Shown in pieces: positions 3,779 to 64,000 of a stretch of DNA of 64,000 nt. The stretch's first letter is position 1. Each line of letters starts with the position of its first letter. Made by a program: the position numbers and the translations under genes. Source of the stretch: an uncultured Bdellovibrio sp. (lineage in GTDB: Bacteria; Bdellovibrionota; Bdellovibrionia; Bdellovibrionales; Bdellovibrionaceae). The notes beneath the pieces were generated by a model. The model searched no databases. It had not been told where the DNA came from and saw only the letters and a list, made by a program, of their open reading frames with translations. The stretch lies in the NCBI GenBank assembly GCA_963932905.1, contig CAWVRN010000013.1:1-64000 (forward strand), written 5' to 3'.

Positions 3779-3942
3779 TTTTGGCGTATTCTCGCGTGAC
3801 GATGGACGAAATCGAACCGAATCGCTCGTTAAACTTTATCTCTTTGTAATTGCTGTTTTCTTTTTACTTTTCGCGGAGTTAGGAAGGTGAAGCGGAAGTC
3901 ATTTGCGGTTGATCCATTTTTTCATTTTACCCGAGAGTAAAA

Positions 3943-4033
3943 TGGCGGAGGATGCGAGATTCGAACTCGCGTTACTCTTTTGGAGTAAACTCGCTTTCCA
4001 AGCGAGCGCCTTCAGCCACTCGGCCAACCCTCC
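3943..4033 (-). tRNA. tRNA-Ser (GGA)
   Basis: Reverse complement GGAGGGTTGGCCGAGTGG..CTCGC-TTGGAAA-GCGAG..long variable arm..GTTCGAATC..ATCCTCCGCCA. Confidence 0.97.
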
Positions 4034-4116
4034 GTCTGATTGATTGAGTGGCTTTTTTAATATTTTTTGGCGACTTACTCAAACATTATTTGCAATGAAA
4101 TTATCTTCGTCGAGTA

Positions 4117-5109
4117 CTAGCTGCCGATTGCCACCGGTGGACGGTACCAGCAACGTGGACGGTAGCCATTGGATTCCACTTTACCAGGACCGCAGGCACC
4201 TTTTCTTGGATCCGCCGAGCTGAAGTCATCAGTGTCAGATACGCGACATGTAGCACCCGCTACGTACGTATCCAGACGACATTGGGCTGCGGGATGACCT
4301 TCGAAAGTTGTCGCCACAACTGATTTATCAACATTTGGAAAGTTAATACCTTTTGGATCACCTTTTAACGAACCTAAAGTTCTAGCCAATGCCAAACCGG
4401 CCATCGCAGATCTCATGCAGATACCAGCGGCTTCAGAATTAACACCGAACGCGTTTACGCACGAATTTCTAACTTCGAATGTCACTTGCGCACGTTGCGC
4501 CCATTGAGCATTGTTACCAATTGCTTTAAAAACCTTACGAGCACATTTTGCAGTAGCGAAGTAGTCGGATTGACCTTCCACCGCGGCCCATTGAGTGTTG
4601 GCACCATAACGAGGGTATCCAGCTAAGTGATGCCCGATTTCGTGACAGGCTACTAATACAAGTCCCTCTTGAGTCATTAATGGATGGCGAGCTAAACCAC
4701 CAAACATAGACACGATAGAAATCGGAGAATAAATACCAGGTGAGGTTTGCATACGAGCGCACTCTGGTGGGTAATTGGGAGTTCCGATCAATTTAGCATC
4801 GTTACAAACAAACGCATACGCATTCACTGTATCGTCTGTCCATCTAGGGAACAGAGCTAATTTTGGTCTGCCATTTTTGCGGAAAATTGGATCATACACT
4901 TGAGCCACGACTTGCAGAACACGTTTGAACTGAAGTTCACTCATTTGTCCTGTGGGACGAATCGGAATTCTTAAATTATTCGCTGGAAAGAATCCGCAAC
5001 CTGGTCCGTGTACGTGAGGTGCTGCTAACAACTCCGGCGTTTCAACATTCTTAGCGCTGTTAATGTTAAAACCAACTAATAAAACTAACCCTAATAAAAT
5101 TGACTTCAT
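4117..5109 (-). CDS. Secreted zinc metalloprotease-like protein (HExxH), Cys-rich
   Basis: Signal peptide MKSILLGLVLLVG; VNAYA..GGLARHP..CHEIGHH..EGQSDYFA. Confidence 0.75.
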   Translation of the reverse strand: MKSILLGLVLLVGFNINSAKNVETPELLAAPHVHGPGCGFFPANNLRIPIRPTGQMSELQFKRVLQVVAQVYDPIFRKNGRPKLALFPRWTDDTVNAYAFVCNDAKLIGTPNYPPECARMQTSPGIYSPISIVSMFGGLARHPLMTQEGLVLVACHEIGHHLAGYPRYGANTQWAAVEGQSDYFATAKCARKVFKAIGNNAQWAQRAQVTFEVRNSCVNAFGVNSEAAGICMRSAMAGLALARTLGSLKGDPKGINFPNVDKSVVATTFEGHPAAQCRLDTYVAGATCRVSDTDDFSSADPRKGACGPGKVESNGYRPRCWYRPPVAIGS

Positions 5110-51227: not shown

Positions 51228-52697
51228 GTGAAAAATCTAAGTCTAACGCAAAGAATTTCCGTCTATTTATTTATAGTCGTCTGTGTATCGACGTTTATAT
51301 TAAATTCTGCTTTCTTTATCGTCTTACGTACTCAAAGTGAAGAGCAGTTCAAGATCCAAGCTAATGAAATTTTAAATAACGTTAGCCGTTATTACCAAAT
51401 TCCACTTTGGAATTTGGATTATAACGCGATCTCTGAGGTTACAAATACGTGGTTGCAAACTCGATCCGGTGTTGTGGCCATCAAAGTCACCGATGAAAAT
51501 GGCGGGTTGGTTATTGAGAAAACGAAAGACAATCAACTGCTAGCGACTTTGTTAAAAAAACCTTACACGCTTTTAAGAAAAGAAAAAATCATTCATGATG
51601 AACGACAGCACATCGGTTATATTGAAATTTTGTTTTCTAATGCCGAACGAGTCGAACAAAACAATCTGACATACATGAAGTCGATTTTATTTAGTTTGGT
51701 ATTTGCATTCGTCATCAGTCTTGTTTCAAATCATTTCTTGACGTTGTTCGTACATCGTCCCTTGAAAAATTTAATTGAAGGAACCCAATCAGCGCATAAT
51801 TCAAATTACACGATTCGTGTTCCTGAAAATGCTGCAGGCGAAATTGGTATTCTAGCAGCAGAATTCAACAAAACGATGAATCAAATCGAAGATCGGGATC
51901 GTCGTCTGCATAAACACAATGTCGCACTAGAAGAAGTTATTCGTGAACGTAACGTTGAGCTCGACAAGCAACGCGCGACGATGTTTAACTCGTCTCGATT
52001 AGCTGCGCTAGGTGAATTTTCTGCAGGAATGTCACATGAAATCAACAATCCTCTTTCAGTAATCATTGGTAAATCGTCTATCCTGCGAGGCTTCGTTTCC
52101 AAAGGAAAGATCGGACCGGAATTTGAAATTCATTTCATCAAGATTCACGAAATGTGTGATCGCATTTCAAAAATCATAAAAAATCTTCGGTCTTATGCTC
52201 GCGATGGTTCAAATGATCCATTTGATTTTTTCGAAATTGATCGATTCTTCACGGACATCGGCGAACTGACTCGGATCAAACTAGACAAACGCGGCGTTGC
52301 TTTTAAATTTGTAAATAATTCGAAGGCGACCCATCTTTACGGTAAAGAAATCCCACTTTCCCAAGTCATTATCAATTTAATAAACAACTCTGCTGACGCT
52401 GTGGAAAACCTGGAAGATAAAAAATGGGTTGAACTTAAGGTCGATGAAGATCCGCAAAATATCACGATTTCGGTCACTGATTCGGGAACAGGAATTCCAG
52501 AAGAAATTCAAAAGAGAATGCTAGTTCCTTTCTTCACTACAAAACCTATAGGTAAAGGCACTGGCCTAGGTCTAAGCATTTCGGCCACTATCATTGAAGA
52601 ACATGGCGGCAAACTTATTTACAATAAAGACTATCCAAATACTCAATTTATTGTCCACCTACCAAACAAACACCATCCAAATCGCAAACTGAGCTAA
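51228..52697 (+). CDS. Membrane sensor histidine kinase (HAMP-HisKA-HATPase)
   Basis: 2 TM, SHEINNPL, NLINNSADA, DSGTGI, PFFTTK, GTGLGL; no response regulator nearby. Confidence 0.93.
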   Translation: MKNLSLTQRISVYLFIVVCVSTFILNSAFFIVLRTQSEEQFKIQANEILNNVSRYYQIPLWNLDYNAISEVTNTWLQTRSGVVAIKVTDENGGLVIEKTKDNQLLATLLKKPYTLLRKEKIIHDERQHIGYIEILFSNAERVEQNNLTYMKSILFSLVFAFVISLVSNHFLTLFVHRPLKNLIEGTQSAHNSNYTIRVPENAAGEIGILAAEFNKTMNQIEDRDRRLHKHNVALEEVIRERNVELDKQRATMFNSSRLAALGEFSAGMSHEINNPLSVIIGKSSILRGFVSKGKIGPEFEIHFIKIHEMCDRISKIIKNLRSYARDGSNDPFDFFEIDRFFTDIGELTRIKLDKRGVAFKFVNNSKATHLYGKEIPLSQVIINLINNSADAVENLEDKKWVELKVDEDPQNITISVTDSGTGIPEEIQKRMLVPFFTTKPIGKGTGLGLSISATIIEEHGGKLIYNKDYPNTQFIVHLPNKHHPNRKLS

Positions 52698-54571
52698 ATC
52701 TGTAGACAAGTTTTTGGTTGCGTTAAAAAAGCGACTTTGTTTAGAAATGGTTGTGTAGCTAACTCAAATAATTCGCGTACATTCTTGTCCTTAAAGATAG
52801 TCGAATGCTTAAGCGATAGCGTATTTATGAAATCATGGCATTCACCAGGTAAAACTTGACCCAAGCATTGCATTAATTCGCGATGATATAAAAAATAGAA
52901 CATATTAAAATAGGCTTCCAGTTTAATCGTCATACTTGGAACAAACGGATTATCAAAGTAGGAAAATTGATTTTTTGATTTACCAGCTATCACCAAAAAT
53001 ATTTGTTCTTTTACACTTTCAATAAGTTTAGCCGGCTCATCCGGCAAATAATCCAATGATTTCCAAACGAATTTGTAAAAATCGGCTGCCGAGATTGAAA
53101 ACTGTTTTTGAACATGTTTTCTAATTTCGGTAAAAAATCCAGACAATTCCATTGCCCTAGTTAAGTGATCCATAAAATACATCTCTGCCCAGTCTTGTTG
53201 AGAATAAGAAGCCGTCGAGGTGACGATGGCATATTGGCTTTGATGGACTAAATTAGTTAGTAAATGAGTTTCACCTTTATTATAAACTTGCGCTCTTAAA
53301 TCTCCACCGACATGGAACCGGATTTGGCTTGTTTTTATTTTATATTGTTCGATATAGCTTGGCTCGCTGGCTGGAGTACCAGGCAGCAAAGACCACGCAT
53401 ATCTCTCCGTTGTCCAATCATCAACTCTATCCAACAGACATAATTCATCATAAAACGACTTTAAATTGCTTTCTGGCAAACCCAAAACAATTTCAAACTT
53501 CAATCTAAGATTGTACTTATTTTTTATTTGTAATGCTTTAGTTAGCAAAACATCCAAAGGAATATTTTTTCTTTTTATAGCAGACAAAATTCGATCGTTT
53601 GTTCCGTTTATTGCCAGATGATACGAGTCTCTCTCAGTAAGGCCCGCCTCAATCAGCAACGTATCTATTTCTTCATTTACATCCCAATTATTTTTTGACT
53701 TACCAAATAGGTAAATTTGTTTCAAATTTCCTTTTTTTGAAATCTCTACCAACTGCTTAATTATGTTTAAATCACGCTCTTTAAAGATTCCAAAATTTGC
53801 ATCTGTAATTCTAACTTCGTTGATGCCCATCGCATCTATATAATCCAGTTCGTTTTTAATAATATGATCGGGTTTAGTAAGAACCTTGGTATTTGTTCCC
53901 CCACCCCATTCACAATAAGTACAACGATAAGGACAACCTCGAGTTGTTTCCCAATTGGTGGCCAAATAACTAGATTTTTTATAAATTTTCTGAAGGTCGA
54001 TATCAAAATCTTTAGCCTCGTTAAATATGTTTTCCGGCCAATTGAACACAGTTTTTTTTTCCACTAAAGATTTTTTAATTTTTCTATCTTTGGAATCGAG
54101 ATAAAGAGAGTAGGGAATTTTTTCGGGCGAAATCTTGTCTTCTGCGATTTGATCTAACAAGGAAGTGAAAAACTCTTCTCCCCGTCCGGGATACTGGCAA
54201 ACAATGTCTACAAAACTATTTTCAATAAACCAGTTTTCATTTTCATGTACCGTTAAGTCAGGCCCACCGAAAGCAATCAATACGCCAGGGAGACGTTTTT
54301 TCACTTCTTTTGCCAAATCAAAATTTAGCTGCCGATTCCAAATCAAACAACTGAACCCAATTACGTCTGGCTGTATACTGACAATATGTTTTATTAGATC
54401 ATGAAATCCAAAAAAGGAAATATCTTCCAATGGAGGCAACCAATCCCAACTATCAAAATTCGCCCCATTTTCACGATAATAGGACTTTAGCAAAAGATAC
54501 AAAAAAGGCAGTTCAATCGATTCTGAAGGAATCGTGGGGTTAACAAGTAAAATCCTCTTTTTTGTTTTCAT
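52694..54571 (-). CDS. Cobalamin-dependent radical SAM protein
   Basis: PDVIGFS..WN..GGP B12-binding region; ETTRGCPYRCTYCEW; DANFG. Confidence 0.9.
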   Translation of the reverse strand: MKTKKRILLVNPTIPSESIELPFLYLLLKSYYRENGANFDSWDWLPPLEDISFFGFHDLIKHIVSIQPDVIGFSCLIWNRQLNFDLAKEVKKRLPGVLIAFGGPDLTVHENENWFIENSFVDIVCQYPGRGEEFFTSLLDQIAEDKISPEKIPYSLYLDSKDRKIKKSLVEKKTVFNWPENIFNEAKDFDIDLQKIYKKSSYLATNWETTRGCPYRCTYCEWGGGTNTKVLTKPDHIIKNELDYIDAMGINEVRITDANFGIFKERDLNIIKQLVEISKKGNLKQIYLFGKSKNNWDVNEEIDTLLIEAGLTERDSYHLAINGTNDRILSAIKRKNIPLDVLLTKALQIKNKYNLRLKFEIVLGLPESNLKSFYDELCLLDRVDDWTTERYAWSLLPGTPASEPSYIEQYKIKTSQIRFHVGGDLRAQVYNKGETHLLTNLVHQSQYAIVTSTASYSQQDWAEMYFMDHLTRAMELSGFFTEIRKHVQKQFSISAADFYKFVWKSLDYLPDEPAKLIESVKEQIFLVIAGKSKNQFSYFDNPFVPSMTIKLEAYFNMFYFLYHRELMQCLGQVLPGECHDFINTLSLKHSTIFKDKNVRELFELATQPFLNKVAFLTQPKTCLQI

Positions 54572-54640
54572 TGAATCAGTTTCAAAGAAAAACTACAATT
54601 TGACATCGATAAAACCAAGTCGACCAGGTGCGGCGGGTAA

Positions 54641-55501
54641 CTAGAAAATTGAAAGGGTCGACAAGTCCTCGATTTGCTTTTGATTGTAAAGATAAAAAAT
54701 GTGACGAAGCAATGCTGGGTTAGAAAAAGCGGTACATGAACTTAACGTAAAGTAGGCAAATGAAATCGGACAATTCATTTCACTTTCTAAATAGTCATCA
54801 ATCGAAATCTCGGAGTTAAAAAAATGACGTTCTGAAAATAATTTTAGAGAAAACCGTTTATACATTCTAGGAACTTCTTGATAAAATATATCCCTCAGTT
54901 CTTTCAAATTATATTTCGAAAGTATATATTTCTTCTGATTTCGATTAAACAGGGGATCGTGTAGAAAATTGTAACTTTGATTTAAATGTTGGTTACTTTG
55001 AACGATACGACTAGATAAATCGTCTTTCATTTCACAAAATAAATCTAAAGAAAACTCTACAACTGATTCACGAACTTTTTCAAGCAACAGCTGACTTACA
55101 GAAGTATTCAGCTGGTTACCCGTTAATTTACACGTTAAATAGGAGGCAACTAAAAATTCTAAATGCATTTCCATCATCGTCTCTTTTTCAAATCGGAGAT
55201 CATTACCAATGATCTCCGACGATTTAGAAAGATAACCATGCAAATATCTAAATTCTGACACGGAAATATTTCCTTCATAAAGCTTGGCATATAAGCGATT
55301 GCTGTAATGATTTATGTGCATAGATATAATTTTTTCTAAATGCTCCTCGGAAATATTTTTAAAATTTATTCTATACCAATTTTTTATACAGGATCGAAGC
55401 TGGGAAACACCATCTACTTTAAAATATAATTTGTTATGGCTAAAACCGTCCGCATTAGTTGAGTCAAATAACAGAAATGTTTTTTTTGAAAGTGAAATCA
55501 A
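54641..55501 (-). CDS. Hypothetical protein (paralog of 55498-56571)
   Basis: 286-aa ORF; shares the EF, DPLFN and NP motifs with its neighbour. Confidence 0.7.
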   Translation of the reverse strand: MISLSKKTFLLFDSTNADGFSHNKLYFKVDGVSQLRSCIKNWYRINFKNISEEHLEKIISMHINHYSNRLYAKLYEGNISVSEFRYLHGYLSKSSEIIGNDLRFEKETMMEMHLEFLVASYLTCKLTGNQLNTSVSQLLLEKVRESVVEFSLDLFCEMKDDLSSRIVQSNQHLNQSYNFLHDPLFNRNQKKYILSKYNLKELRDIFYQEVPRMYKRFSLKLFSERHFFNSEISIDDYLESEMNCPISFAYFTLSSCTAFSNPALLRHIFYLYNQKQIEDLSTLSIF

Positions 55502-56571
55502 TTGATACTCGCTCGGTGCATACTAAGTGCCCAATCCACAATAAAAGGATTAATCTGCCGATCATATTGAAATCGATTAAACAAGACTCGCGTAATTCCA
55601 GACTCTGCTTCGAATTTCAAAACGTCGCCAAATGAAAGATCTCTTTTGAACAGGCAAGATGAAATCCCTTTATAAACCTCGCCACTCGACATATCGGTCA
55701 AAGTTAAAAGGCTGTCCCGAACTGATACTAAATCATTTAAATCGTAATTGTTCCAAACATGACTAACGTTATCGGCATTAAAAAGCGGATCAGCCATCCA
55801 CAAGGGAAGATCGCCATTTCGTACGCGGTCGACAATATCACTCCAATTAAATTGGTTTTCATCCTTGAAGGTTATAATTTTTCCGTCTGAGATTCCTTGA
55901 ATTCTAAAATGATTTAAAGCTAAAACAGATCCAACTTCTCGAAGATAGTCCGTGATCAATTGCTTTTTAACAATATGCAAAGCTCGTTCTTCAAATTTCA
56001 AATTCTCATCACCACGGTCATTTTTTAACAGATGAAGCAATTGAAATTCAAAACCGATTTTGCTTTTTGGTAAGCTTTTAACCGAAGTTAGCTTAGACAA
56101 AACGTGTCTTACCTTTCCGTCTGAATGTCCATAGTACCCTATGTTTTTCACCCGTTCTTTCTCTACCTCTAAAAACTGTGCTGAATGCTTAATGTATAAT
56201 GTTGCTAGAACGCCTTGATCTTCTTCATTGAGGCCAAACAAAAAATAAAATAAACGTTTTAGAATCTTGAACGAGTCGTCCCAACTTGCAACGATAACGA
56301 AAACCGTTGTCTGATTTTGGCTAGTTTCTAACTGATGACTTAAATCAAGAAAAGTATTTGAGGAACTACCCTGATCCATATCGAACTCACCGATTTGATT
56401 TAAACCAGAGTCAATATTCTTAATAATATCTAAGACCGTGTTCTCACCCAGATAGGGATCCAATTCGTCTCTAAAATCTAAAACTGAAAATCGATGTATA
56501 CCAGGCGCCCTCGCTGAGCCTGTAATATTAGATTTTGGATAAAGAAACAGACCCTCTCGGAGAAAAATCAT
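55498..56571 (-). CDS. Hypothetical protein (paralog of 54641-55501)
   Basis: 357-aa ORF with a 4-bp overlap to the downstream gene. Confidence 0.75.
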   Translation of the reverse strand: MIFLREGLFLYPKSNITGSARAPGIHRFSVLDFRDELDPYLGENTVLDIIKNIDSGLNQIGEFDMDQGSSSNTFLDLSHQLETSQNQTTVFVIVASWDDSFKILKRLFYFLFGLNEEDQGVLATLYIKHSAQFLEVEKERVKNIGYYGHSDGKVRHVLSKLTSVKSLPKSKIGFEFQLLHLLKNDRGDENLKFEERALHIVKKQLITDYLREVGSVLALNHFRIQGISDGKIITFKDENQFNWSDIVDRVRNGDLPLWMADPLFNADNVSHVWNNYDLNDLVSVRDSLLTLTDMSSGEVYKGISSCLFKRDLSFGDVLKFEAESGITRVLFNRFQYDRQINPFIVDWALSMHRASIN

Positions 56572-56672
56572 ACCTTAGGGTACTTTACGATTATGCAGAT
56601 CGCATTTCCCAACGCAGTGTGTATTGTTTGATTTCCAAGCAACTCAAATCTAGCGTGTTATTTATATTGGCT

Positions 56673-57512
56673 ATGTCTTCAAATATTTCTATTCAAAATT
56701 TCCTATCACAAAAATATATTTTTGAAGAAAGATATAACCTAAATAAACGCCCGGAACTAATTCGACATTATTCAACTTTAAAGAGTGAAGCCGATAAATT
56801 GTTTTTCAACCAAACTATAGATTTTTCAAGTCTTTCATTCTATGCAAATAGCCAAAATTCAGATATTTGCCAGTGGTTTCTAAAAAATATTTCGACTGAA
56901 GCTCACTATTATGACTTTTCAATTCCTATGAGCCCCATTACACCTCTCGATTTCTATTTCGACGTTAGTCCCATAAATCACCGCCCTTGGAAAATGATAT
57001 TGTTTATTTACAGTCCGTATACCTGCGACTCCCATGGACCTCTTACGCACCCTACTCATGTACAAAAATTTTTTCAGGAAAAAGAGGAAGAATACTTACC
57101 CAAATCTTTCTTTATTGAAGATCTCGAACTTGGTTGGATTTGCTATGATGATTTCGACACATTTACTTTTGTCCATCATATTCAACTGAAGGGGAAACTT
57201 AAAAGCCTGCTTAACAACTACGATTTGAAATGGTTTTACAGATTTATGGCGCGAAGCTTACCACATTTTTTCTCAAAAAAAACAAATCCCATCATTATCC
57301 CCACGGCTTCCATGTACGATAAACTGATGAAACGGGCTACCAAAAATTCTGGAATCTGTATTCAACCATACAGCGAACGAATACTGGGAAGTTCGGGTTT
57401 TAAAAAAATAGACAGTCAAATATTTGATCTTCATTTTCCCGGAGAGCTCAAAAAAATGATTTTAAATAAATATCTCACTCCAAGTGAAATTGAGTTTTGG
57501 AGATATCCTTAA
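56673..57512 (+). CDS. Hypothetical protein
   Basis: ORF 56535..57512; first ATG clear of the divergent gene is at 56673. Confidence 0.65.
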   Translation: MSSNISIQNFLSQKYIFEERYNLNKRPELIRHYSTLKSEADKLFFNQTIDFSSLSFYANSQNSDICQWFLKNISTEAHYYDFSIPMSPITPLDFYFDVSPINHRPWKMILFIYSPYTCDSHGPLTHPTHVQKFFQEKEEEYLPKSFFIEDLELGWICYDDFDTFTFVHHIQLKGKLKSLLNNYDLKWFYRFMARSLPHFFSKKTNPIIIPTASMYDKLMKRATKNSGICIQPYSERILGSSGFKKIDSQIFDLHFPGELKKMILNKYLTPSEIEFWRYP

Positions 57513-57540
57513 GCCAAGAATCCAACTAAACTCTGCACGA

Positions 57541-58158
57541 TTAATCCAATATTCGAATTTTCTTATTTTGATGAAAATGACGTGCTTTAGTCATGAGTAC
57601 CGCGATTGTCATACGTGGTTGATCGCCAAAATACGGTCTCACAACGTGTGATAAAAACGCAGGAAAAATAGCCAATCTATTTTCTTTTGGCTTTACGTAT
57701 ACTATTCCATTTGGGTAGTCAGTCGCCGTCGAATTTTTATATACCGCCAATTCTCCTCCCAAATACCGATCATCTTTGGGCTCATCTATATTTAAATAAA
57801 ACGTGATGGCAAAATATCCCCCCTCGGCCTGGTCATGATGAGTGTGAGTAATATATTCATCTGCCATCGTCTCACCATAATGTAGGACTTGATGAACCTG
57901 AAAATGAATTATTTCAAATTGCGAGCTGTCTTCTCCTGCATTCTGACAATAGTTCGTGAATGCACTTAATAAAAAACGCCGAAACAAATCAACTTCGGTA
58001 GGTAACCGATCATGATCAAAATTAATCATGGGGAATTTTTTCTGTCTTTTAAACTCCTCGAACATGAAGTTCTTCAGCTTCGCAAATTCGATGTCTGGTA
58101 ATACGTTATCTTCTATTTGAATGTGTGTGGGCCAGAGGGTGTGAAAAGCCATGCTCAA
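57541..58158 (-). CDS. 2OG-Fe(II) oxygenase family protein
   Basis: LWPT, THHD, GGEL, IFPAFLSHVVRPY, RMTIA. Confidence 0.85.
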   Translation of the reverse strand: MSMAFHTLWPTHIQIEDNVLPDIEFAKLKNFMFEEFKRQKKFPMINFDHDRLPTEVDLFRRFLLSAFTNYCQNAGEDSSQFEIIHFQVHQVLHYGETMADEYITHTHHDQAEGGYFAITFYLNIDEPKDDRYLGGELAVYKNSTATDYPNGIVYVKPKENRLAIFPAFLSHVVRPYFGDQPRMTIAVLMTKARHFHQNKKIRILD

Positions 58159-58286
58159 TAGTGTCCTGGCCTGACTATAAAATCAATTTTGTCCTAACTT
58201 GACGCAAGATGCGAAAATAGTGCCGATAGCGTGTTTTACTTTATATAATTTCTATTTCTTGTTCGAATAAATGTTAGATTAAATTT

Positions 58287-59231
58287 ATGAAAAAACTTAT
58301 AGTGAGCGTAAACCCATCCTATCTTTGCAACTTAAAATGCAAGTTCTGTTATTTGACGAAAGAGCAACTTAGCGACCCACATAAGTTAGATATAAAAACC
58401 CTTGAACACAAAATTAAAGATTTAGCTGATGTATTTGAAATTACCAAGTTTGACTTATATGGCGGGGAATTTGCCGTTTTACCGCTGTCCTATCAAAATG
58501 ATGTAGTTTCAGTGTTACAGCACTATGCGCGTGACAAAGTAAACATAATTACGAATTTGACTAAACTCAGCGATATTTTTTTTGATGAAGCGTTGGATAT
58601 AAGCGTGAGCTTTGACTTTTCTGCGAGAGAACAACATGAACTAGTTTTAAAAAATATTGGATTTCTAAATCGTCCTATTTCCATACTTATGCTAGCGTCA
58701 CCGGATTTGATGAAACTCGATCATGAAATGATGATTCAAACATTTAATATTTTTAGAAACATTATCAGTGTAGAAATTAAGCCTTACTCGACGAACCAAG
58801 CGAATGCCTTAAGTACTAAATTTAGCTCTTTTGAAGAATTCGTAAAAAAATGGATTTCTGCAAAAACAAAAAAAAACTTCTCGTTTGAAAATGAAAATCG
58901 CATTCAAAAAAGTTTAAAAAGATCTTACTCTGCTTTTTCCGATGATCATATTTACATCACTCCTTCTGGAAAATACGCAGTATTGGAATTTGACAAAGCC
59001 GACAACGAATTCTTTCTTGAGCTAAATTCCATTGAAGACTATTTAAATTGGTGCCAGCAGGAACCAAATAAACTGACTCCCATCTGTCAGTCTTGTGAAT
59101 ATTTGGGCAATTGTTTAACAGAGCATTATCGACAAGTAAAATCCTTGGAAAACAGCTGCAATGGTTTTAAATTCTTACTGGATTGGTATCGAAATGAAAA
59201 AATGGAAAATAAATCAGCAGATTTATCATAA
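58287..59231 (+). CDS. Radical SAM protein with C-terminal Cys cluster (SPASM/twitch-like)
   Basis: CNLKCKFC, YGGE, CQSCEYLGNC..SCNG. Confidence 0.9.
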   Translation: MKKLIVSVNPSYLCNLKCKFCYLTKEQLSDPHKLDIKTLEHKIKDLADVFEITKFDLYGGEFAVLPLSYQNDVVSVLQHYARDKVNIITNLTKLSDIFFDEALDISVSFDFSAREQHELVLKNIGFLNRPISILMLASPDLMKLDHEMMIQTFNIFRNIISVEIKPYSTNQANALSTKFSSFEEFVKKWISAKTKKNFSFENENRIQKSLKRSYSAFSDDHIYITPSGKYAVLEFDKADNEFFLELNSIEDYLNWCQQEPNKLTPICQSCEYLGNCLTEHYRQVKSLENSCNGFKFLLDWYRNEKMENKSADLS

Positions 59232-59607
59232 ACTCACAGACAAACATTCGGACGACTTAAACACCTTAAGCATACGTTATGATAGCAATATTGCCAAATC
59301 GACGGTTTCCTATTTTCGAGGAAAAACGACGGGTCTAGTTTATCCCGCTAAAAGCTATTTCGTGGGAATTTGTTACGCCAAATGGATACAGCAAGACTTT
59401 GGAGATAGTTTTAAAGACAACCTAGACGATGCGGAGCTTTTATTCAAAAATGACCCTTACTTTAAACGGTATTCAGAAGCAAAAGATGTTTATGACCAGA
59501 TTCTTAGTATCGTTGGGCTTAACTTCGATGAATCGGTAGGTATTATTCCCGTGGTGCGACAATATTACCTAAATGAAATTCAACTCAAAGGATTTGATAA
59601 TCCATAA
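59194..59607 (+). CDS. Hypothetical protein overlapping the radical SAM gene
   Basis: ATG at 59194 lies inside the 3' end of the rSAM gene; VYPAKSY, NDPYF motifs. Confidence 0.7.
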   Translation: MKKWKINQQIYHKLTDKHSDDLNTLSIRYDSNIAKSTVSYFRGKTTGLVYPAKSYFVGICYAKWIQQDFGDSFKDNLDDAELLFKNDPYFKRYSEAKDVYDQILSIVGLNFDESVGIIPVVRQYYLNEIQLKGFDNP

Positions 59608-59672
59608 AACTTCTTTGTAGAAATACCGAAGTAAGTATTAATATAAATATAGATAGGAGCATCGGAGGAAGC

Positions 59673-60281
59673 TTGGAAATTCAAACTCAGTTTATCAATC
59701 CGTTTCCAGTTGAGTTACTTGTACGAGATTTCGAAATGCCTCCAAACTGGAATGAGAATTTGGATTTATTTATTCGCACCCAAGTTTTCAAAAACCAACA
59801 AATATATAATCCGAACAATCCTAGCATGTTTGATGAAATCAATATCTTTGCAAATGAATATGTTGATAAAAGTGAAGAACTGCAAATCCTCTATAAAATG
59901 TTTTACGACGGCTTTAAAGATCTTGCCCTACATAGTGACCCGAACATTTTACCTGAATCTATTTCTAAAATGGATTTTAAGGGAAAAGTCCCTTTCATGA
60001 AGTCTGGCGACTTTAAGAAAGTTCACAATCATGTTAAGGCGGATGCCTACGGAATTTTTTATTTGAATGAAATCGCACCCAAGTCTGGTGGCCAACTGAT
60101 CTTGCACCATCCTGTTTTTCACAATCAAGTATATTATACCGCTCCTGCAGAGTATCCTATTCCTCATAAAAAAAATCGCCTCATTGTTGGTCCTAGCTAT
60201 GTATGGCACGAAGTGAGCTATTATTCGGGTAAAACGGAACGGCAGGTTATATCTGCTGACTGCAACCTATTTTGGACATAA
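59673..60281 (+). CDS. 2OG-Fe(II) oxygenase-like protein (HxH...H)
   Basis: PFPV, VHNH, GIFYL, GGQL, PSYVWHEV, RQVIS; GGAGG RBS with TTG start. Confidence 0.8.
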   Translation: MEIQTQFINPFPVELLVRDFEMPPNWNENLDLFIRTQVFKNQQIYNPNNPSMFDEINIFANEYVDKSEELQILYKMFYDGFKDLALHSDPNILPESISKMDFKGKVPFMKSGDFKKVHNHVKADAYGIFYLNEIAPKSGGQLILHHPVFHNQVYYTAPAEYPIPHKKNRLIVGPSYVWHEVSYYSGKTERQVISADCNLFWT

Positions 60282-60293
60282 AATTTTACGCGA

Positions 60294-60845
60294 GTGAGTA
60301 TCACAATGATTACAAAAAAATATATTGGCGCCGGTGCCTATGAAGTTCAAGGTTTGGGTAATGAAATTCTTTTTCCCATTCAAAGCCTCATACCAGGGGA
60401 TGAAATTAAATTCGAACGCGAAAACGATCGCCTAATTACGGCTGCAGTTAGCCACTTACCTAGCTTATTGGGACTTTTTATCTTAAATTCTGATTACGCG
60501 CAGACCAACGTTGACCATAATCAACTTACCCGAGCCTGGGCCTGGGAGTGGCATAGTGACTCGGTAAATAACCCTCAAGTAGATTGTAAAGTAATACTCT
60601 ACTTCGTCAGTGAGGACCTTACGGAAGAAACTGGAAATCGAATTTGCTTTAGAAAAAAAACAGAAAATAATGAATACACTTACGATATAAAAAATAACTC
60701 ATTGATCGTCCAACGTTCAGATCCACACGGAGTGTATCAACACAAAAGGGAACCAAGTCGAAAACCTATCAAAAGCAGAATTATTTTGTCAATGAATTGC
60801 CTGGGCTTCGATACTTTTTTAAAAAGTGTCCCCGATGCCATATAG
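60294..60845 (+). CDS. 2OG-Fe(II) oxygenase-like protein
   Basis: WHSD..ILYF..G..I.F..YQHK..RI. Confidence 0.7.
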   Translation: MSITMITKKYIGAGAYEVQGLGNEILFPIQSLIPGDEIKFERENDRLITAAVSHLPSLLGLFILNSDYAQTNVDHNQLTRAWAWEWHSDSVNNPQVDCKVILYFVSEDLTEETGNRICFRKKTENNEYTYDIKNNSLIVQRSDPHGVYQHKREPSRKPIKSRIILSMNCLGFDTFLKSVPDAI

Positions 60846-60856
60846 CACAAACTCTG

Positions 60857-61726
60857 ATGACACAATTTAAAGTCTTTATTTTTTCTATATTTTTCGGCTC
60901 TACTACGTTGTTCGCAACCGAGGAATTTCAGTTCTTTTTTCAAAATGATTTATTTATCAGAAAAAATTCTTGCGGTGAAAAAGAAATAGGATATCCAAAA
61001 GCCATAAGAATTGAAACACATTTACCCAAAAGTATTATAAAAAATAATTTGAAAATAACCGTCAAAGAGGCGAACTCCAATTTTAGCCAAACAATTATAT
61101 ACAATGGAAGTTCATTTTTTTATCCTGGGGTGTTTGGGGAAAAGGGACATTCTGAATACGGAATGCCTTTGTGTGAAGCTCATTTGGCTGGCTGTAGTTT
61201 TTTCTTTTTTGTATTCGACTTTGAAAAGCTGTCTTCTAGAAGTATTTGGAAACTTGATATCAGAATAGAAGAACTCGATTCAAAAAAAATTGTCATCGAA
61301 AAATCTAAAATTCTAGTTAAAAACGAGTTTTCAAAAAAAAAGGACGCCTATTTAATAAATGAAATCGATTTTATAGATGCCACCCCCAGCAAAAACGCGG
61401 TTGCTTTGGTTAGTCCCCAAAAAATAAAAAAAATATTAAAAGAAGGATATAATGTGGACTTCATTTTTTCGTGGAGAAGCACAGAGGAACAAATTGGCTA
61501 TTCGGAAAAATTTCATAATATAAAATTAGATAGTGAATGGATAAAACAAAATAACCCGAAATTTCCATTTAACGAAGATCCAACGAAGCCGAAAACCTAT
61601 TTGAGCTTTATGGTTTATTTGACAAAAAAAAATGTCGCTTTTGAAACAAAAATTGTTATTTTAGATAACAAGTACTCAGATTTTTTTTCTAAGTGCAAAA
61701 ACCCGACTTCATCAGGTGGAAAATGA
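60857..61726 (+). CDS. Secreted hypothetical protein (paralog of next gene)
   Basis: Signal peptide MTQFKVFIFSIFFGSTTLFA; four Cys conserved with its neighbour. Confidence 0.7.
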   Translation: MTQFKVFIFSIFFGSTTLFATEEFQFFFQNDLFIRKNSCGEKEIGYPKAIRIETHLPKSIIKNNLKITVKEANSNFSQTIIYNGSSFFYPGVFGEKGHSEYGMPLCEAHLAGCSFFFFVFDFEKLSSRSIWKLDIRIEELDSKKIVIEKSKILVKNEFSKKKDAYLINEIDFIDATPSKNAVALVSPQKIKKILKEGYNVDFIFSWRSTEEQIGYSEKFHNIKLDSEWIKQNNPKFPFNEDPTKPKTYLSFMVYLTKKNVAFETKIVILDNKYSDFFSKCKNPTSSGGK

Positions 61727-62646
61727 AAAAGCTATTTTTTGTATGTTTTTCGGTTGTTATAATGATACTTCTTATCTGGACATTAAGTCCAAACCCTAGC
61801 AATTTGGTTATAACGCAGCAACAGGTAAAGGAACTTTCACCTAACCAACCACCTCAGGTTGACCATGTCAGGTTTCACAATATTATCTTAACTGAGAAAA
61901 ATGAGTGCGGGCAAACCCGAGAAAGCACTATTAGGGTATTTGATTTAGTATTTTTTGCTCCTCTGGAATTGACTAGGGACAAATTGAGAATCATCGTCAC
62001 AGAAGAGGTATCGGGCAACCAGCAAGAGATTTTTTTTGATGGAAACTCATTTTTGTATAAAAAATTAAATGCCAATTCCGATGTCCAAGACTTTGGAGTT
62101 CCTGAAAAATGCATAAGCCGCGATCCGTGTCCATTTTTTGTCAAAGTAAAACCCGAATATTGGAAAAATTTGAAAAGGGAAGTTCGGTTTTCCGTGAATA
62201 TATTTAACTCAAACAACCAATCCGAACCTGCACTGGTAAAAAAATATGACACAGAAGAGAATCAATTTTTAACTTCTTTTGCCGCCCCTCGAAACGAAAT
62301 CAGTGTTTTGTCTTCATTTGATCCAAAGACAAAGACAGTTTACGCTTATTTACCTAAAACCCCCGTCATTGACCAATTGAATAAAAGTACTGAGCTGTAT
62401 TTGGTCATACAGACAAAGAACAAAGTAGAGCAAAATTTTCTAGATAAATTTGAGTTCGATGTAAACCTTTTTGGACTAGAAAAGCGCATACGTGGAGACA
62501 ATTTTGAATACAAGACTAAGATAAATTCATCAGACCCTGCTTACCTCAATACAAGCTTTTATATGATTAGAAAAAACTTGTCCGAGGCCCACAGCGTAAT
62601 TTCTATAAACAAATCTGATCCATTTTTCAATTGTTCACAACAGTAG
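61723..62646 (+). CDS. Membrane-anchored/secreted hypothetical protein (paralog of previous gene)
   Basis: ATGA overlap; N-terminal hydrophobic helix. Confidence 0.7.
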   Translation: MKKLFFVCFSVVIMILLIWTLSPNPSNLVITQQQVKELSPNQPPQVDHVRFHNIILTEKNECGQTRESTIRVFDLVFFAPLELTRDKLRIIVTEEVSGNQQEIFFDGNSFLYKKLNANSDVQDFGVPEKCISRDPCPFFVKVKPEYWKNLKREVRFSVNIFNSNNQSEPALVKKYDTEENQFLTSFAAPRNEISVLSSFDPKTKTVYAYLPKTPVIDQLNKSTELYLVIQTKNKVEQNFLDKFEFDVNLFGLEKRIRGDNFEYKTKINSSDPAYLNTSFYMIRKNLSEAHSVISINKSDPFFNCSQQ

Positions 62647-63667
62647 ATCGATCGATGTATGCAAAAGTTGCTTTAAACGGACAGTCCGCGGTGCTTGCGC
62701 GTTTTGTAAAGCTATGCTTTACAAAACAGCCCAAAGTGCATCGATTAAAATACTTACACTCTAGGCAATTGTATTTTTCCATAAAATTCATTTCCACAGC
62801 ACTGTTGTCATTTGATTCAATTACGACGTCAAATAGCGGCGATACAGATTTGTTTTGTAAAATCAAATTACCACATTTACATTCGGTTCCATCACCAAGT
62901 AAAAGTTTTGAACTACGACAAGACATCGTATTATAGGAATTTTCAATCCATTCCCTGATGGGATTTACTTTTGGAAAGTTATCTACAAGGTATTTAAAAA
63001 ATACAACCAAATCATCATCATTTGGCATCATTAGCTGGTAATCATCTGCCGGAGAATAATAGTCAAAATAGATATAAAAGTTTTTTTCGTACAAATATTC
63101 AAAATATCGATCGCCAGAGTTCAACATCAAACTTATAAGTGGCTTCGTAATAAGCATACTAATACAACTAATTTCGTCGGAAAAAAATTCGACGTTGCTT
63201 TTAAAAAGTTCAAAATTGCTGTGACTAAAGCGCCCCCTCGGATCATAAGATGTGACCAGGTTATATGCGATGTTATTCTTTTTAAGATCGGCGAAGAGAG
63301 CCCGTATTTGGCTCTGTCTATTATTTACTAAGTTTGAAACAAAATTGAAAACTACTTTTTTATTGTTCTTCCGAGTGAATCTATCGACTTCGTCGCAGAG
63401 GTAAAAATAGTCACTTTGCAAATTTTCGTCAAATAGGTCATCGGCAAAAATCTCGCCACCCATTATATTTATTGTAAATTCAAACCGCTCGTCTTTATCC
63501 AGCATTGCGATTAACTGTGGTACTTTATTTCTAACTTCGGCTACCCCTTTTAACGCAGAATGATCTTGCCAACAAAACTTACAGGCCAAGTTACACTTTT
63601 CAAATAGGTGCAAGGTGTACTCTTGATTGGGGCTTCGTTTGTTTTTCAAAACAAAATCGCTTATCAT
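62627..63667 (-). CDS. Radical SAM protein with SPASM-like C-terminus
   Basis: CNLACKFC, MGGE, SCRS, CKCG, CLECKYFNRCTLGC..CPF. Confidence 0.9.
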   Translation of the reverse strand: MISDFVLKNKRSPNQEYTLHLFEKCNLACKFCWQDHSALKGVAEVRNKVPQLIAMLDKDERFEFTINIMGGEIFADDLFDENLQSDYFYLCDEVDRFTRKNNKKVVFNFVSNLVNNRQSQIRALFADLKKNNIAYNLVTSYDPRGRFSHSNFELFKSNVEFFSDEISCISMLITKPLISLMLNSGDRYFEYLYEKNFYIYFDYYSPADDYQLMMPNDDDLVVFFKYLVDNFPKVNPIREWIENSYNTMSCRSSKLLLGDGTECKCGNLILQNKSVSPLFDVVIESNDNSAVEMNFMEKYNCLECKYFNRCTLGCFVKHSFTKRASTADCPFKATFAYIDRSTVVNN

Positions 63668-64000
63668 AGTCGAACCTCAGGTTGTCTCTTTTTTACAAGA
63701 ACATTTCCGGCTTCTTTTTTATTTATTTCGATTACTTTTTTTGCTATCTCTTTCATTCCCGAACAGTGGCGTTCTATCGAGTCGTGTTGCTTCAGGTCGT
63801 GGATTGTTTTTTTACATCCGTTGCAAATATTAAACATCGGACATGTGTAACATTCAATTTTAAGTGCATTCAGTTCCGTCTGATTTAGAAGAGGTCGATG
63901 GACATTGACATCTGACATTTCCTGCTCAAAAGAAATGGGATAAAGTCGGTCATCCGCAAATGCCCCACAACTATAGTAGTCACCGGATGGCTGCAAACAT
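63664..64000 (-). CDS. Radical SAM/SPASM protein, C-terminal part (5' end outside the window)
   Basis: Frame open to the window edge; PSGDYYSCG, CYTCPMFNICNGC..HC. Confidence 0.8.
   Translation of the reverse strand, partial: CLQPSGDYYSCGAFADDRLYPISFEQEMSDVNVHRPLLNQTELNALKIECYTCPMFNICNGCKKTIHDLKQHDSIERHCSGMKEIAKKVIEINKKEAGNVLVKKRQPEVRL

Follow-up and report, generated by a model that had tools for sequence, protein, structure and literature searches.

Radical S-adenosylmethionine (rSAM) enzymes are well known for the maturation of peptides; the maturation of a whole effector protein by such enzymes was first shown in 2026, for the HXS system. In this system, the effector HxsA carries basic His-Xaa-Ser repeats that are essential, and is matured by the rSAM enzymes HxsB and HxsC, alongside HxsD (Li et al., Nat Commun 2026; PMC13128918). 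The predatory bacterium Bdellovibrio bacteriovorus has phage-like MAT (mosaic adhesive trimer) fibres, 13 of them with autoproteolytic S74 domains, for which a role in handling the surface of the prey has been proposed (Caulton et al., Nat Microbiol 2024; PMC10769870). Here, we describe an island of six rSAM enzymes and three 2-oxoglutarate (2OG)-Fe(II) oxygenases in an uncultured Bdellovibrio sp. of the family Bdellovibrionaceae (GenBank assembly GCA_963932905.1). The window, that is, the whole stretch of DNA that was analysed, comprises the first 64,000 nucleotides of contig CAWVRN010000013.1 (C13:1-64000) of a 4.55-Mb genome in 58 contigs; positions above 64000 follow the same numbering.

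The island represents a cassette that is otherwise known from phages and here lies on a bacterial chromosome, outside any prophage. Among the forms of rSAM-dependent protein maturation, it is an undescribed variant whose enzyme set is unusually large. A literature search that reached few of the subscription journals found no description of the cassette or of the peptide tail that characterises it, and the available phage papers that touch on the cassette only list its annotations (PMC8066314, PMC5468394, PMC11898562). The analysis establishes which genes the island contains, their homologies, how they co-occur and where they lie on the chromosome, and it is established for one phage that the tailed protein is in the virions. 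A preliminary description of the window had placed the island at 52694-64000; what it reported inside that range stands, but its right-hand limit does not, as position 64000 splits the island about in half and the gene set extends to about 76.7 kb on the same contig. Most of the second half belongs to an operon of 12 co-directional genes on the minus strand, running from 74352 down to 62627 with gaps or overlaps of at most 88 nt. Its gene order, starting from 74352 (lengths in amino acids, aa), is:

373-aa fibre-like, 346-aa fibre-like, 203-aa, 334-aa fibre-like, rSAM/SPASM 69364-70521, 215-aa tailed protein, 258-aa, 360-aa, 356-aa, 364-aa cryptic rSAM, 348-aa rSAM/SPASM, 346-aa rSAM

The tailed protein and its phage counterparts

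The preliminary description had predicted a substrate gene past 64000, upstream of the 63664 and 62627 genes. A candidate was indeed found there, within the same operon:

68707-69354, minus strand: tailed protein, 215 aa, ending in (C-H-x-S)x3-R-G-R-R and then the stop codon

This protein is the probable substrate of the island enzymes. The genome holds one tail gene, and a second copy of the island genes was not found. The last 21 residues of the protein match phrog_35144 (E 6.5e-4), whereas the protein as a whole retrieved only its own uncharacterised phage family from BFVD. It gave no NCBIfam match at E ≤ 0.001, no Pfam domain at E ≤ 5 and, when its fold was compared with the PDB using Foldseek, nothing at E ≤ 0.001; no signal peptide is recognisable at its N-terminus, and a peptidoglycan-binding domain was not found either. 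Its AlphaFold2 (AF2) model shows a folded α/β domain (predicted local distance difference test, pLDDT, 75.7; predicted template modelling score, pTM, 0.73) with a low-confidence tail. These values argue for a folded protein and not a leader peptide. When the tailed and 258-aa proteins were modelled as a complex, the score was 0.01.

The tail is far better conserved than the rest of the protein. In an alignment of 64 tailed proteins, its C, H, S and R residues are invariant, while the bodies are only 17-49% identical to that of the 215-aa protein. A C-terminal core of this kind would suit a classical ribosomally synthesised and post-translationally modified peptide (RiPP), in which the 16 residues of the tail would be the core and the body of ~200 aa a long leader, the tail being cut off and released as an antibiotic, a metallophore or a signal acting on prey or on the phage host. 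We regard this as unlikely: the body is a confidently folded domain, and an invariant core behind a variable 'leader' is the reverse of what is seen in most RiPPs. The absolute invariance of the core, together with the many oxidative enzymes present for one short sequence, could also point to a peptide-derived cofactor made in the manner of pyrroloquinoline quinone (PQQ) or mycofactocin, where the tail becomes a small redox or metal cofactor for another enzyme. This explanation is very unlikely, as neither the island nor the phage cassettes contain a cofactor-dependent dehydrogenase, a peptidase or a carrier protein, and it leaves both the linkage to fibre genes and the incorporation into virions, described below, unexplained.

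Searching 50,697 phage records with tblastn, we found the rSAM encoded at 63664 in 15 records at 51-55% identity, corresponding to 11 distinct phages, all of them jumbo phages. The phages in which the cassette was seen are:

Ralstonia phages RSF1, RSL2, FLC4-4C, FLC4-5C, FLC4-11C and RsoM3USA
Burkholderia phages FLC6, FLC8 and SURPRISE13
Agrobacterium phage Atu_ph07
Sinorhizobium phage Phosso
Pseudomonas phage pPa_SNUABM_DT01

We compared four of these regions (RSF1, Atu_ph07, Phosso and pPa_SNUABM_DT01). All four contain several rSAM genes, two 2OG oxygenase genes and, after the first rSAM gene, a 'hypothetical protein' of 178-306 aa, and in each case this protein ends in the same 16-residue tail. 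The order rSAM, tail protein, 258-aa protein is common to the island and the jumbo phages. Together with the contigs from IMG/VR described next, these regions bear out what the preliminary description had mentioned, namely that multi-rSAM cassettes with a Cys/His-repeat protein occur near phage tail genes. The cassette of RSF1 and its relatives is interrupted midway by one gene for an HNH endonuclease and two for dihydrofolate reductases (RSF1, locus L003, 20330-21619).

To scan IMG/VR and bacterial genomes, the tail was back-translated into a degenerate DNA pattern. The pattern occurs in at least 121 IMG/VR stretches, of which 80 loci were analysed; these had been picked by the tail motif alone, blind to the enzymes, and many are cut by contig ends. 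Every one of the 80 contains an open reading frame (ORF) that ends exactly in the motif (101 such ORFs in all, 124-309 aa, often in tandem pairs), and every one contains at least one rSAM-like ORF (median 4, maximum 6). Counting matches within 8 kb of the tail gene (blastp, E ≤ 1e-5), homologues of the rSAMs 69364, 62627, 63664, 64710 and 58287 were present in 61, 54, 45, 31 and 28 of the 80 loci, respectively. The enzymes thus co-occur repeatedly and tightly with one tailed protein, which supports the multi-enzyme post-translational modification system proposed in the preliminary description. Two tailed proteins from IMG/VR gave no match among the cultured phages, a search in which the low-complexity filter may mask the tail.

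In many phages (loci L025, L036, L041, L042, L045, L056 and others), two tail genes of 124-140 aa stand in tandem about 385 bp apart, and these tandem proteins carry an I-E-G-R-like motif about 14 residues ahead of the tail. RiPP precursors are often encoded in tandem, which speaks for a released peptide; on the other hand, the island contains no protease or exporter (Pfam), nor is one annotated in the four phage cassettes.

Fibre genes also flank phage cassettes. We examined the 30 longest of 203 non-cassette ORFs of at least 250 aa beside the cassettes. Ten of them match tail-fibre PHROGs, 12 have the C-terminal part of phrog_22593 in common, 17 belong to giant proteins of unknown function (phrog_358/877/5986) and one is without a match. 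Eight giant ORFs stop exactly at the start of the tail-protein gene.

Published proteomics of Atu_ph07 virions gives direct information on the fate of the tailed protein. In that work (Attai et al. 2018, Table S5; PMC6102473), gp170 was detected in purified virions by 8 unique peptides covering 35.16% of its sequence. The tailed protein of this phage is gp170, and the masses that we computed for gp170, gp176 and gp177 (31.89, 66.07 and 21.66 kDa) equal the values in the table exactly, so that the table must follow the RefSeq numbering. The cassette enzymes and accessory proteins gp164-169, gp171 and gp172 are unlisted among the virion proteins in the same material. The tailed protein is thus structural and the enzymes are not, and the recovery of the whole protein at 35% coverage speaks against the release of its tail as a free peptide. 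According to the same table, gp170, a protein of 31.9 kDa, is found in gel bands 1-9 and is most abundant in band 1, whereas the other proteins that peak in band 1 are mostly of 75-139 kDa and proteins of ~30 kDa peak in band 8 (PMC6102473). It therefore runs far above the size of a monomer, which would fit covalent cross-linking but could alternatively result from aggregation.

Probable modifying enzymes and accessory proteins

Four of the rSAM genes, one of them truncated, lie inside 52694-64000, as had been described; Pfam, NCBIfam and the CX3CX2C motif agree on them, and the truncated gene, 63664, is intact beyond the window. The six rSAMs of the whole island are:

52694..54571, minus strand: B12-binding rSAM, probably of class-B type, 625 aa; PF04055 33.2 bits, PF02310 31.7 bits; CX3CX2C at residue 213
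58287..59231, plus strand: rSAM with Cys-rich C-terminus, 314 aa; CX3CX2C at 14, five C-terminal Cys
62627..63667, minus strand: rSAM/SPASM-like, 346 aa, last gene of the operon; CX3CX2C at 25, CX2CX5CX3C at 301
63664..64710 (63664..64000 in the window), minus strand: rSAM/SPASM, 348 aa, cut by the window end; PF04055 33.3 bits, TIGR04085; CX3CX2C at 11
64710-65804, minus strand: cryptic rSAM, 364 aa, missed by Pfam; C-x3-C-x2-C at 24, C-terminal Cys cluster
69364-70521, minus strand: rSAM/SPASM, 385 aa; CX3CX2C at 45, CX2CX5CX3C

The CX3CX2C motif is thus present in all six. Two of them, 52694 and 63664, exceed the gathering score of PF04055 (29.5 bits); 58287, 69364 and 62627 stay below it (27.7, 22.8 and 17.3 bits), and 64710 does not match the model. 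The 111-aa fragment of the 63664 gene inside the window already scores 27.4 against a cut-off of 27 on the SPASM model TIGR04085. The SPASM-type CX2CX5CX3C motif occurs in 62627 and 69364, while 58287 and 64710 have four to five C-terminal Cys without the full motif. The phage relationships differ in closeness from enzyme to enzyme: 63664 is 51-55% identical to its counterparts in the four phage loci, 69364 is 55% identical to genes of Atu_ph07 and Phosso, 58287 is 45-48% identical to genes in all four cultured-phage loci examined, 62627 is 28-39% identical to phage genes, and 64710 matches phrog_31457 (E 8.1e-24). For 52694, the cobalamin-binding domain scores just under its cut-off (PF02310, 31.7 versus 32.1 bits) and the top NCBIfam match is a KedN5-type C-methyltransferase (115 bits against a cut-off of 700), which makes it a probable C-methylase; its homologues were found in 17 of the 80 phage loci and 8 of the 26 bacterial genome loci introduced below.

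The best curated relatives of the rSAMs are RiPP maturases, namely DarE (47.5 bits), DynA (45.6 bits), PapB and the cyclophane formers, and this likeness speaks for RiPP-type processing. The NCBIfam scores are nevertheless far under the cut-offs (at most 47.5 bits versus 340-650), and the XyeB, GrrM, YhhB, AmcB and FxsB equivalogs are not matched by the island rSAMs (best 17.8-23.9 bits versus 310-450). As all NCBIfam scores are far below their cut-offs, none of the rSAMs falls into a characterised family with an unrelated role. The substrates of cyclophane formers contain repeats of a three-residue motif, which may start with His, a pattern that H-x-S would fit.

The likeness to HXS raises a further explanation, in which a matured basic tail protein would act as a gatekeeper that blocks the entry of foreign DNA, serving bacterial defence or, in phages, superinfection exclusion. 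The tail consists of three H-x-S units followed by R-G-R-R, which recalls the basic H-x-S repeats reported as essential in HxsA (PMC13128918), and rSAM 63664 weakly matches HxsC (E 1.6e-8) and HxsB (E 2.8e-4). Its scores, however, remain at 19.8 versus 370 bits for HxsB (TIGR03978) and 33.8 versus 267.9 bits for HxsC (TIGR03977), and the HxsA and HxsD models are unmatched by the island proteins. The tailed protein also lacks a signal peptide and a peptidoglycan-binding domain, a PADLOC run on the island yielded only generic rSAM and 2OG matches, and a setting among fibre genes and presence in virions suit a structural role better. We consider such a gatekeeper quite unlikely.

The three 2OG-Fe(II) oxygenases of the preliminary description were recovered as well, all with an H-x-D motif, although one lies above the Pfam cut-off, one is borderline and one is weak:

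57541..58158, minus strand: 2OG-Fe(II) oxygenase, 205 aa; PF13640 36.9 versus 27
59673..60281, plus strand: 2OG-Fe(II) oxygenase, 202 aa; PF13759 26.5 versus 27, borderline
60294..60845, plus strand: 2OG-oxygenase-like, 183 aa; PF13640 20.3 versus 27, weak; H-S-D at 87

By jackhmmer, the 57541 family was found in 42 of the 80 phage loci (including RSF1 ORF080/082), the 59673 family in 39 and the 60294 family in 34 (including RSF1 ORF083/084); blastp detected the first two in 11 and 8 loci, respectively.

The other proteins encoded between the enzymes are the following:

54641..55501, minus strand: 286-aa protein; homologue only in the same-genus genome G077
55498..56571, minus strand: 357-aa accessory protein of the 356-aa family, paralogue of 65785-66855
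56535..57512, plus strand: putative orphan ORF, 325 aa, diverging from 55498-56571 and overlapping its start by 37 nt
59161..59607, plus strand: 148-aa cassette protein; phrog_20737, E 1.8e-39
65785-66855, minus strand: 356-aa accessory family; 78 jackhmmer matches
66848-67930, minus strand: 360-aa protein, operon member
67934-68710, minus strand: 258-aa cassette protein; phrog_20767, E 8.2e-26

The six ORFs without an assigned function that had been noted in the window are all present, and homology indicates that most of them are regular members of the cassette. The 148-aa protein has tblastn matches in 15 cultured-phage records (30-43% identity) and homologues in 11 of the 80 phage loci, and the 258-aa protein has matches in 14 phage records and homologues in 37 of the loci; the latter gave no usable match in the ESM Atlas. 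The 356-aa family, taking 65785 and 55498 together, was found by iterative profile search in 48 of the 80 phage loci. A jackhmmer search with 55498 gave 34 matches, including RSF1 ORF072 (E 1.5e-34), six of the 80 phage loci and 13 of the 26 genome loci. The AF2 model of 65785 has a pLDDT of 88.3, and Foldseek returned nothing for it from the PDB at E ≤ 0.001. We considered a protein tyrosine phosphatase (PTP)-like N-domain and a helical domain for this family and rejected it, since VIA-align Z-scores did not exceed 6.2, within the noise range of the tool, and the CX5R motif was not seen. The 54641 protein is without a Pfam, NCBIfam or PHROG match. For 56535, no homologue was found in any local set or library searched (Pfam, NCBIfam, PHROG, loci), and this ORF is either lineage-specific or no real gene.

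Chromosomal setting and fibre-like genes

The AT-rich character of 52694-64000 was evident on a genome-wide scale. Its G+C content is 35.3%, compared to a mean of 40.7% (standard deviation 1.3%) for 11.3-kb windows of the genome, and none of 3951 such windows is as low, making it the most AT-rich stretch of this length in the genome. The low-G+C DNA reaches ~69 kb, breaks at 69355-74352 and then resumes to ~79 kb. The intervening block, with a genome-typical 41.8%, comprises the fibre-like genes and rSAM 69364, and the DNA on either side has 35.4-35.8%. This mosaic suggests that the DNA of the island came together from two or more sources.

On both sides, the island adjoins housekeeping genes. 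The left flank encodes a glutathione S-transferase, UbiA, cytochrome c oxidase subunits, an SDR protein, FabH, an acyl-CoA ligase and a histidine kinase, and the right flank a BamE-like protein, SecA, an EamA transporter, a hybrid kinase, a cation-efflux protein, an M13 peptidase and an AcrB pump. Over about 38-100 kb of the contig, Pfam and PHROG searches revealed no integrase, terminase, capsid or portal family, and a tRNA search beside the island found none. Given these flanks and the lack of phage capsid, terminase and integrase genes nearby, the island is not a prophage. Non-ribosomal peptide synthetases, polyketide synthases, transporters and peptidases, which had not been visible in the window, were found nowhere across the island (52.7-76.7 kb; Pfam, NCBIfam). 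Scans for promoters and terminators showed no excess over shuffled sequences (36 versus 41.3 and 14 versus 11.7).

The composition invites the explanation that the island is a decaying remnant of a phage or of other horizontally acquired DNA, without present function. In its favour are the lowest G+C of any 11.3-kb window of the genome, a patchy distribution (9 of 120 genomes of the family and 18 of 400 of the phylum, see below) and a gene order rearranged relative to both phages and G077. However, all cassette genes are full-length and intact, capsid, terminase and integrase genes are absent nearby, and the bacterial copies form a clade that spans several families (50-64% identity), so that they must have been kept for a long time. 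A remnant of this kind therefore seems highly improbable.

The upstream part of the operon and the edges of the island hold genes that set the bacterial copy apart:

70610-71614, minus strand: prepilin-like fibre protein with Peptidase_S74 (PF13884), 334 aa
71580-72191, minus strand: phage-appendage-like protein, 203 aa; viral neighbours in the ESM Atlas
72201-73241, minus strand: prepilin-like fibre protein with Peptidase_S74 (PF13884), 346 aa
73231-74352, minus strand: prepilin-like fibre protein with Peptidase_S74 (PF13884), 373 aa
74404-74751, plus strand: bacterial-only protein, 115 aa; 11 matches, all in genome loci
60797-61726, plus strand: protein with hydrophobic N-terminus, paralogue of 61693 (E 1.3e-7)
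61693-62646, plus strand: protein with hydrophobic N-terminus, paralogue of 60797
75891-76733, minus strand: third secreted paralogue, 43% identical to 60797

The three S74 proteins score 40.2, 49.7 and 45.1 bits on PF13884 (cut-off 22) and have many tail-fibre PHROG matches. The sequence S-D-x3-K, which we take to be the Ser-Lys autocleavage motif of Peptidase_S74, is visible in all three. Their N-termini read R-G-F-T-L-I-E, R-G-I-S-L-T-E and K-G-F-S-I-I-Q, each followed by a hydrophobic helix; matches to the pilin-type model PF07963 (N_methyl) reached 16.0 and 16.9 bits against a cut-off of 21.2. Among 12 distinct S74 homologues from other Bdellovibrionota loci, five have the strict prepilin motif and three more a near-motif by eye. 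The 203-aa protein is the best-conserved non-enzyme, with 51-62% identity in 8 of the 26 genome loci. It resembles viral clusters, some of which have a Peptidase_G2 appendage domain, and gave no match among the cultured phages. Its gene is present in all five cassette-positive genomes of the genus (on the cassette contig in three), in one of four cassette-negative ones and not in the one genome of genus g9, although these are small numbers of related genomes. The 115-aa protein was found in none of the 80 phage loci with the queries used. The three paralogues (about 280-317 aa, with conserved Cys) bracket the island and belong to no known family. The only homologues found for this paralogue family lie next to the cassette in Bdellovibrionota loci (G095/L164, L161, L014); the 80 phage loci yielded none.

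Among 185,579 species genomes, each represented by one genome, the tail pattern occurs in 26 stretches. Fifteen of these are labelled Bdellovibrionota (Bdellovibrionaceae, Pseudobdellovibrionaceae, Bacteriovoracaceae, Halobacteriovoraceae and Bacteriovoracia), and the other 11 are metagenome-assembled genomes (MAGs) or bins of other taxa. G060, G095 and G097, from the window's own genus or family, are among the motif-matched contigs. In sampled genomes, rSAM 69364 was found in 9 of 120 others of the family, including 5 of 9 of the same genus, and rSAM 63664 in 18 of 400 other Bdellovibrionota genomes, belonging to five families, with none in the 26 genomes of genus g9.

For rSAM 63664, an unrooted tree of 59 orthologues, built by a quick method and leaving out rows with fewer than 280 aligned residues, contains a split supported by an SH-like approximate likelihood ratio test (SH-aLRT) value of 97. 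It separates 14 Bdellovibrionota rows and one MAG labelled Flavobacteriaceae from 44 phage-like rows. The latter comprise 37 IMG/VR rows, 4 rows from cultured phages and 3 MAG rows (Marinovum, Methanobacteriota, Rickettsiales) nested among the phage rows, which are probably phage contigs in bins. The bacterial copies thus form a lineage of their own and are not recent strays from the sampled phages.

The gene order agrees with the possibility, raised in the preliminary description, of a chromosomal, rearranged copy: it differs from that of the phages and from that of the nearest relative, G077. On the G077 contig (C59:1-10857), the three rSAMs present are 74-75% identical to those of the island, and homologues of 60294, 54641 and 55498 stand directly upstream of rSAM 69364, where the island has its fibre genes. 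This arrangement indicates that the gene order has been reshuffled within the genus.

Variants of the tail were also seen outside this genus. Two Bacteriovoracia MAGs (L161, L165) have a tail with four C-H-x-S units instead of three. A contig of the Bacillota isolate Dysosmobacter segnis (L160) contains, at 3907-4266, a 119-aa ORF with two successive (C-H-x-S)x3 units, whose neighbours include an rSAM 62627 homologue as well as relatives of the 258-aa protein and the 356-aa family, and may represent a Gram-positive or prophage form. In G095, G045 and G090, the open frame surrounding the rSAM 69364 match contains one in-frame TGA; in G095, an intact 358-aa ORF spans the match, so the TGA probably lies outside the gene.

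Proposed role and comparison with known systems

With a probability of about 0.6, we propose that the cassette chemically finishes the tail of one folded protein, which serves as a structural part of a contact device; a tailored structural protein is favoured over a released RiPP-like peptide. We infer the chemistry, the assignment of the substrate and the role in predation as follows. In the cytoplasm, the five rSAMs with extra Cys clusters would abstract hydrogen atoms from residues of the tail and form thioether and/or carbon-carbon cross-links, as their relatives DarE, DynA, PapB and the cyclophane-forming maturases do. The B12-dependent rSAM would add methyl groups, the three Fe/2OG-type oxygenases would hydroxylate, and the 258-aa, 356-aa-family and 148-aa proteins may be accessory or substrate-handling factors. 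The product would be a structural protein, not a free peptide, with a rigid knot at its C-terminus that probably binds metal or forms covalent links. In phages, the finished protein would enter the virion beside the tail fibres. In the bacterium, it would most likely be part of a surface fibre or a pilus-associated device for prey contact, a role that we propose because the gene shares one operon with three S74 prepilin-like genes and a phage-appendage-like gene.

Several observations weigh against this proposal. The chemistry is derived from a weak family likeness, the best NCBIfam scores being 45-48 bits versus cut-offs of 450-650. No signal peptide can be recognised in the tailed protein and no export gene in the island (Pfam), which leaves the route of the protein out of the cytoplasm unexplained. 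A tail that never varies, on a body that does, is characteristic of peptide-derived cofactors and not of typical structural proteins. The anomalous migration of gp170 comes from one published table, and aggregation is possible. The bacterial fibre partners are not a constant companion of the cassette either: just 8 of the 26 genome loci have the 203-aa and S74 genes within 10 kb of the tail gene, with these queries none of the 80 phage loci has them, and the same-genus genome G085 carries the 203-aa gene without the two rSAMs searched. Finally, few genomes of the phylum have the cassette (18 of 400, none of 26 in genus g9), so it is not needed for predation in general.

More tentatively, and on balance doubtfully, predators and large phages may share a way of building their attack organelles. 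The six rSAMs and three oxygenases would then make a cross-linked knot, perhaps metal-loaded or stapling, that locks a protein into a fibre; the predator fibre would be a new hybrid of a type-IV-pilin-like anchor and a self-cleaving S74 module, and a phage pathway of virion maturation would have been kept for predation, or the reverse. Such a knot would be the first radical cross-link known to be installed by an enzyme in a structural protein of a virion or cell surface.

As proposed, six rSAMs and three oxygenases would serve a 16-residue tail that is unchanged across soil jumbo phages, marine phages and predators. If true, this would mean new protein chemistry on a Cys-His-Ser motif. It would also mean a finishing step of phage adsorption organelles that has not been sought, and it would tie phage infection to bacterial predation at the molecular level in a way that goes further than the known phage-like fibres of Bdellovibrio. 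The bacterial copy, being compact, chromosomal and accompanied by candidate fibre partners, is the most testable entry point.

Among known systems, HXS is the nearest characterised analogue; the island appears to work somewhat alike and is not a member of that system. Both involve a whole protein with H-x-S-containing repeats in a basic context, matured, in the island presumably, by the products of adjacent rSAM genes. In the island, however, the repeat is C-H-x-S, occurs three times and stands at the very C-terminus, six rSAMs and three oxygenases take the place of the two rSAMs of HXS, homologues of HxsA and HxsD are lacking (NCBIfam), and the genes are set among fibre genes, and in phages linked to virions, instead of in a defence island.

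The rSAM/SPASM maturases of RiPPs (DarE, DynA, PapB, XyeB, GrrM, YhhB, AmcB) share with the island enzymes the N-terminal CX3CX2C motif and the C-terminal Cys of auxiliary clusters. They differ in their substrate, which in the island is a folded 215-aa protein with an invariant core, and in that no protease or transporter accompanies it.

The MAT fibres of B. bacteriovorus resemble the island in combining S74-bearing, phage-tail-fibre-like proteins with a predatory bacterium. The island proteins are of 334-373 aa and have a prepilin-type start, whereas the numbering of MAT constructs exceeds 1,000 residues (PMC10769870). Furthermore, the S74 genes of the island sit with an rSAM cassette, and rSAM enzymes go unmentioned in the MAT paper (PMC10769870).

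The cassette of the jumbo phages has orthologous rSAMs (up to 55% identity), 2OG oxygenases, the 148-, 258- and 356-aa proteins, the same tail and a partly shared gene order. The phage copies open with a cupin gene, a counterpart of which was not found in the island; 60294 was considered for this place and rejected, as its family matches RSF1 ORF083/084 and not the cupin. The bacterial copy, in turn, is chromosomal and adds the S74 prepilin-like genes, the 203-aa and 115-aa genes and the secreted paralogues.

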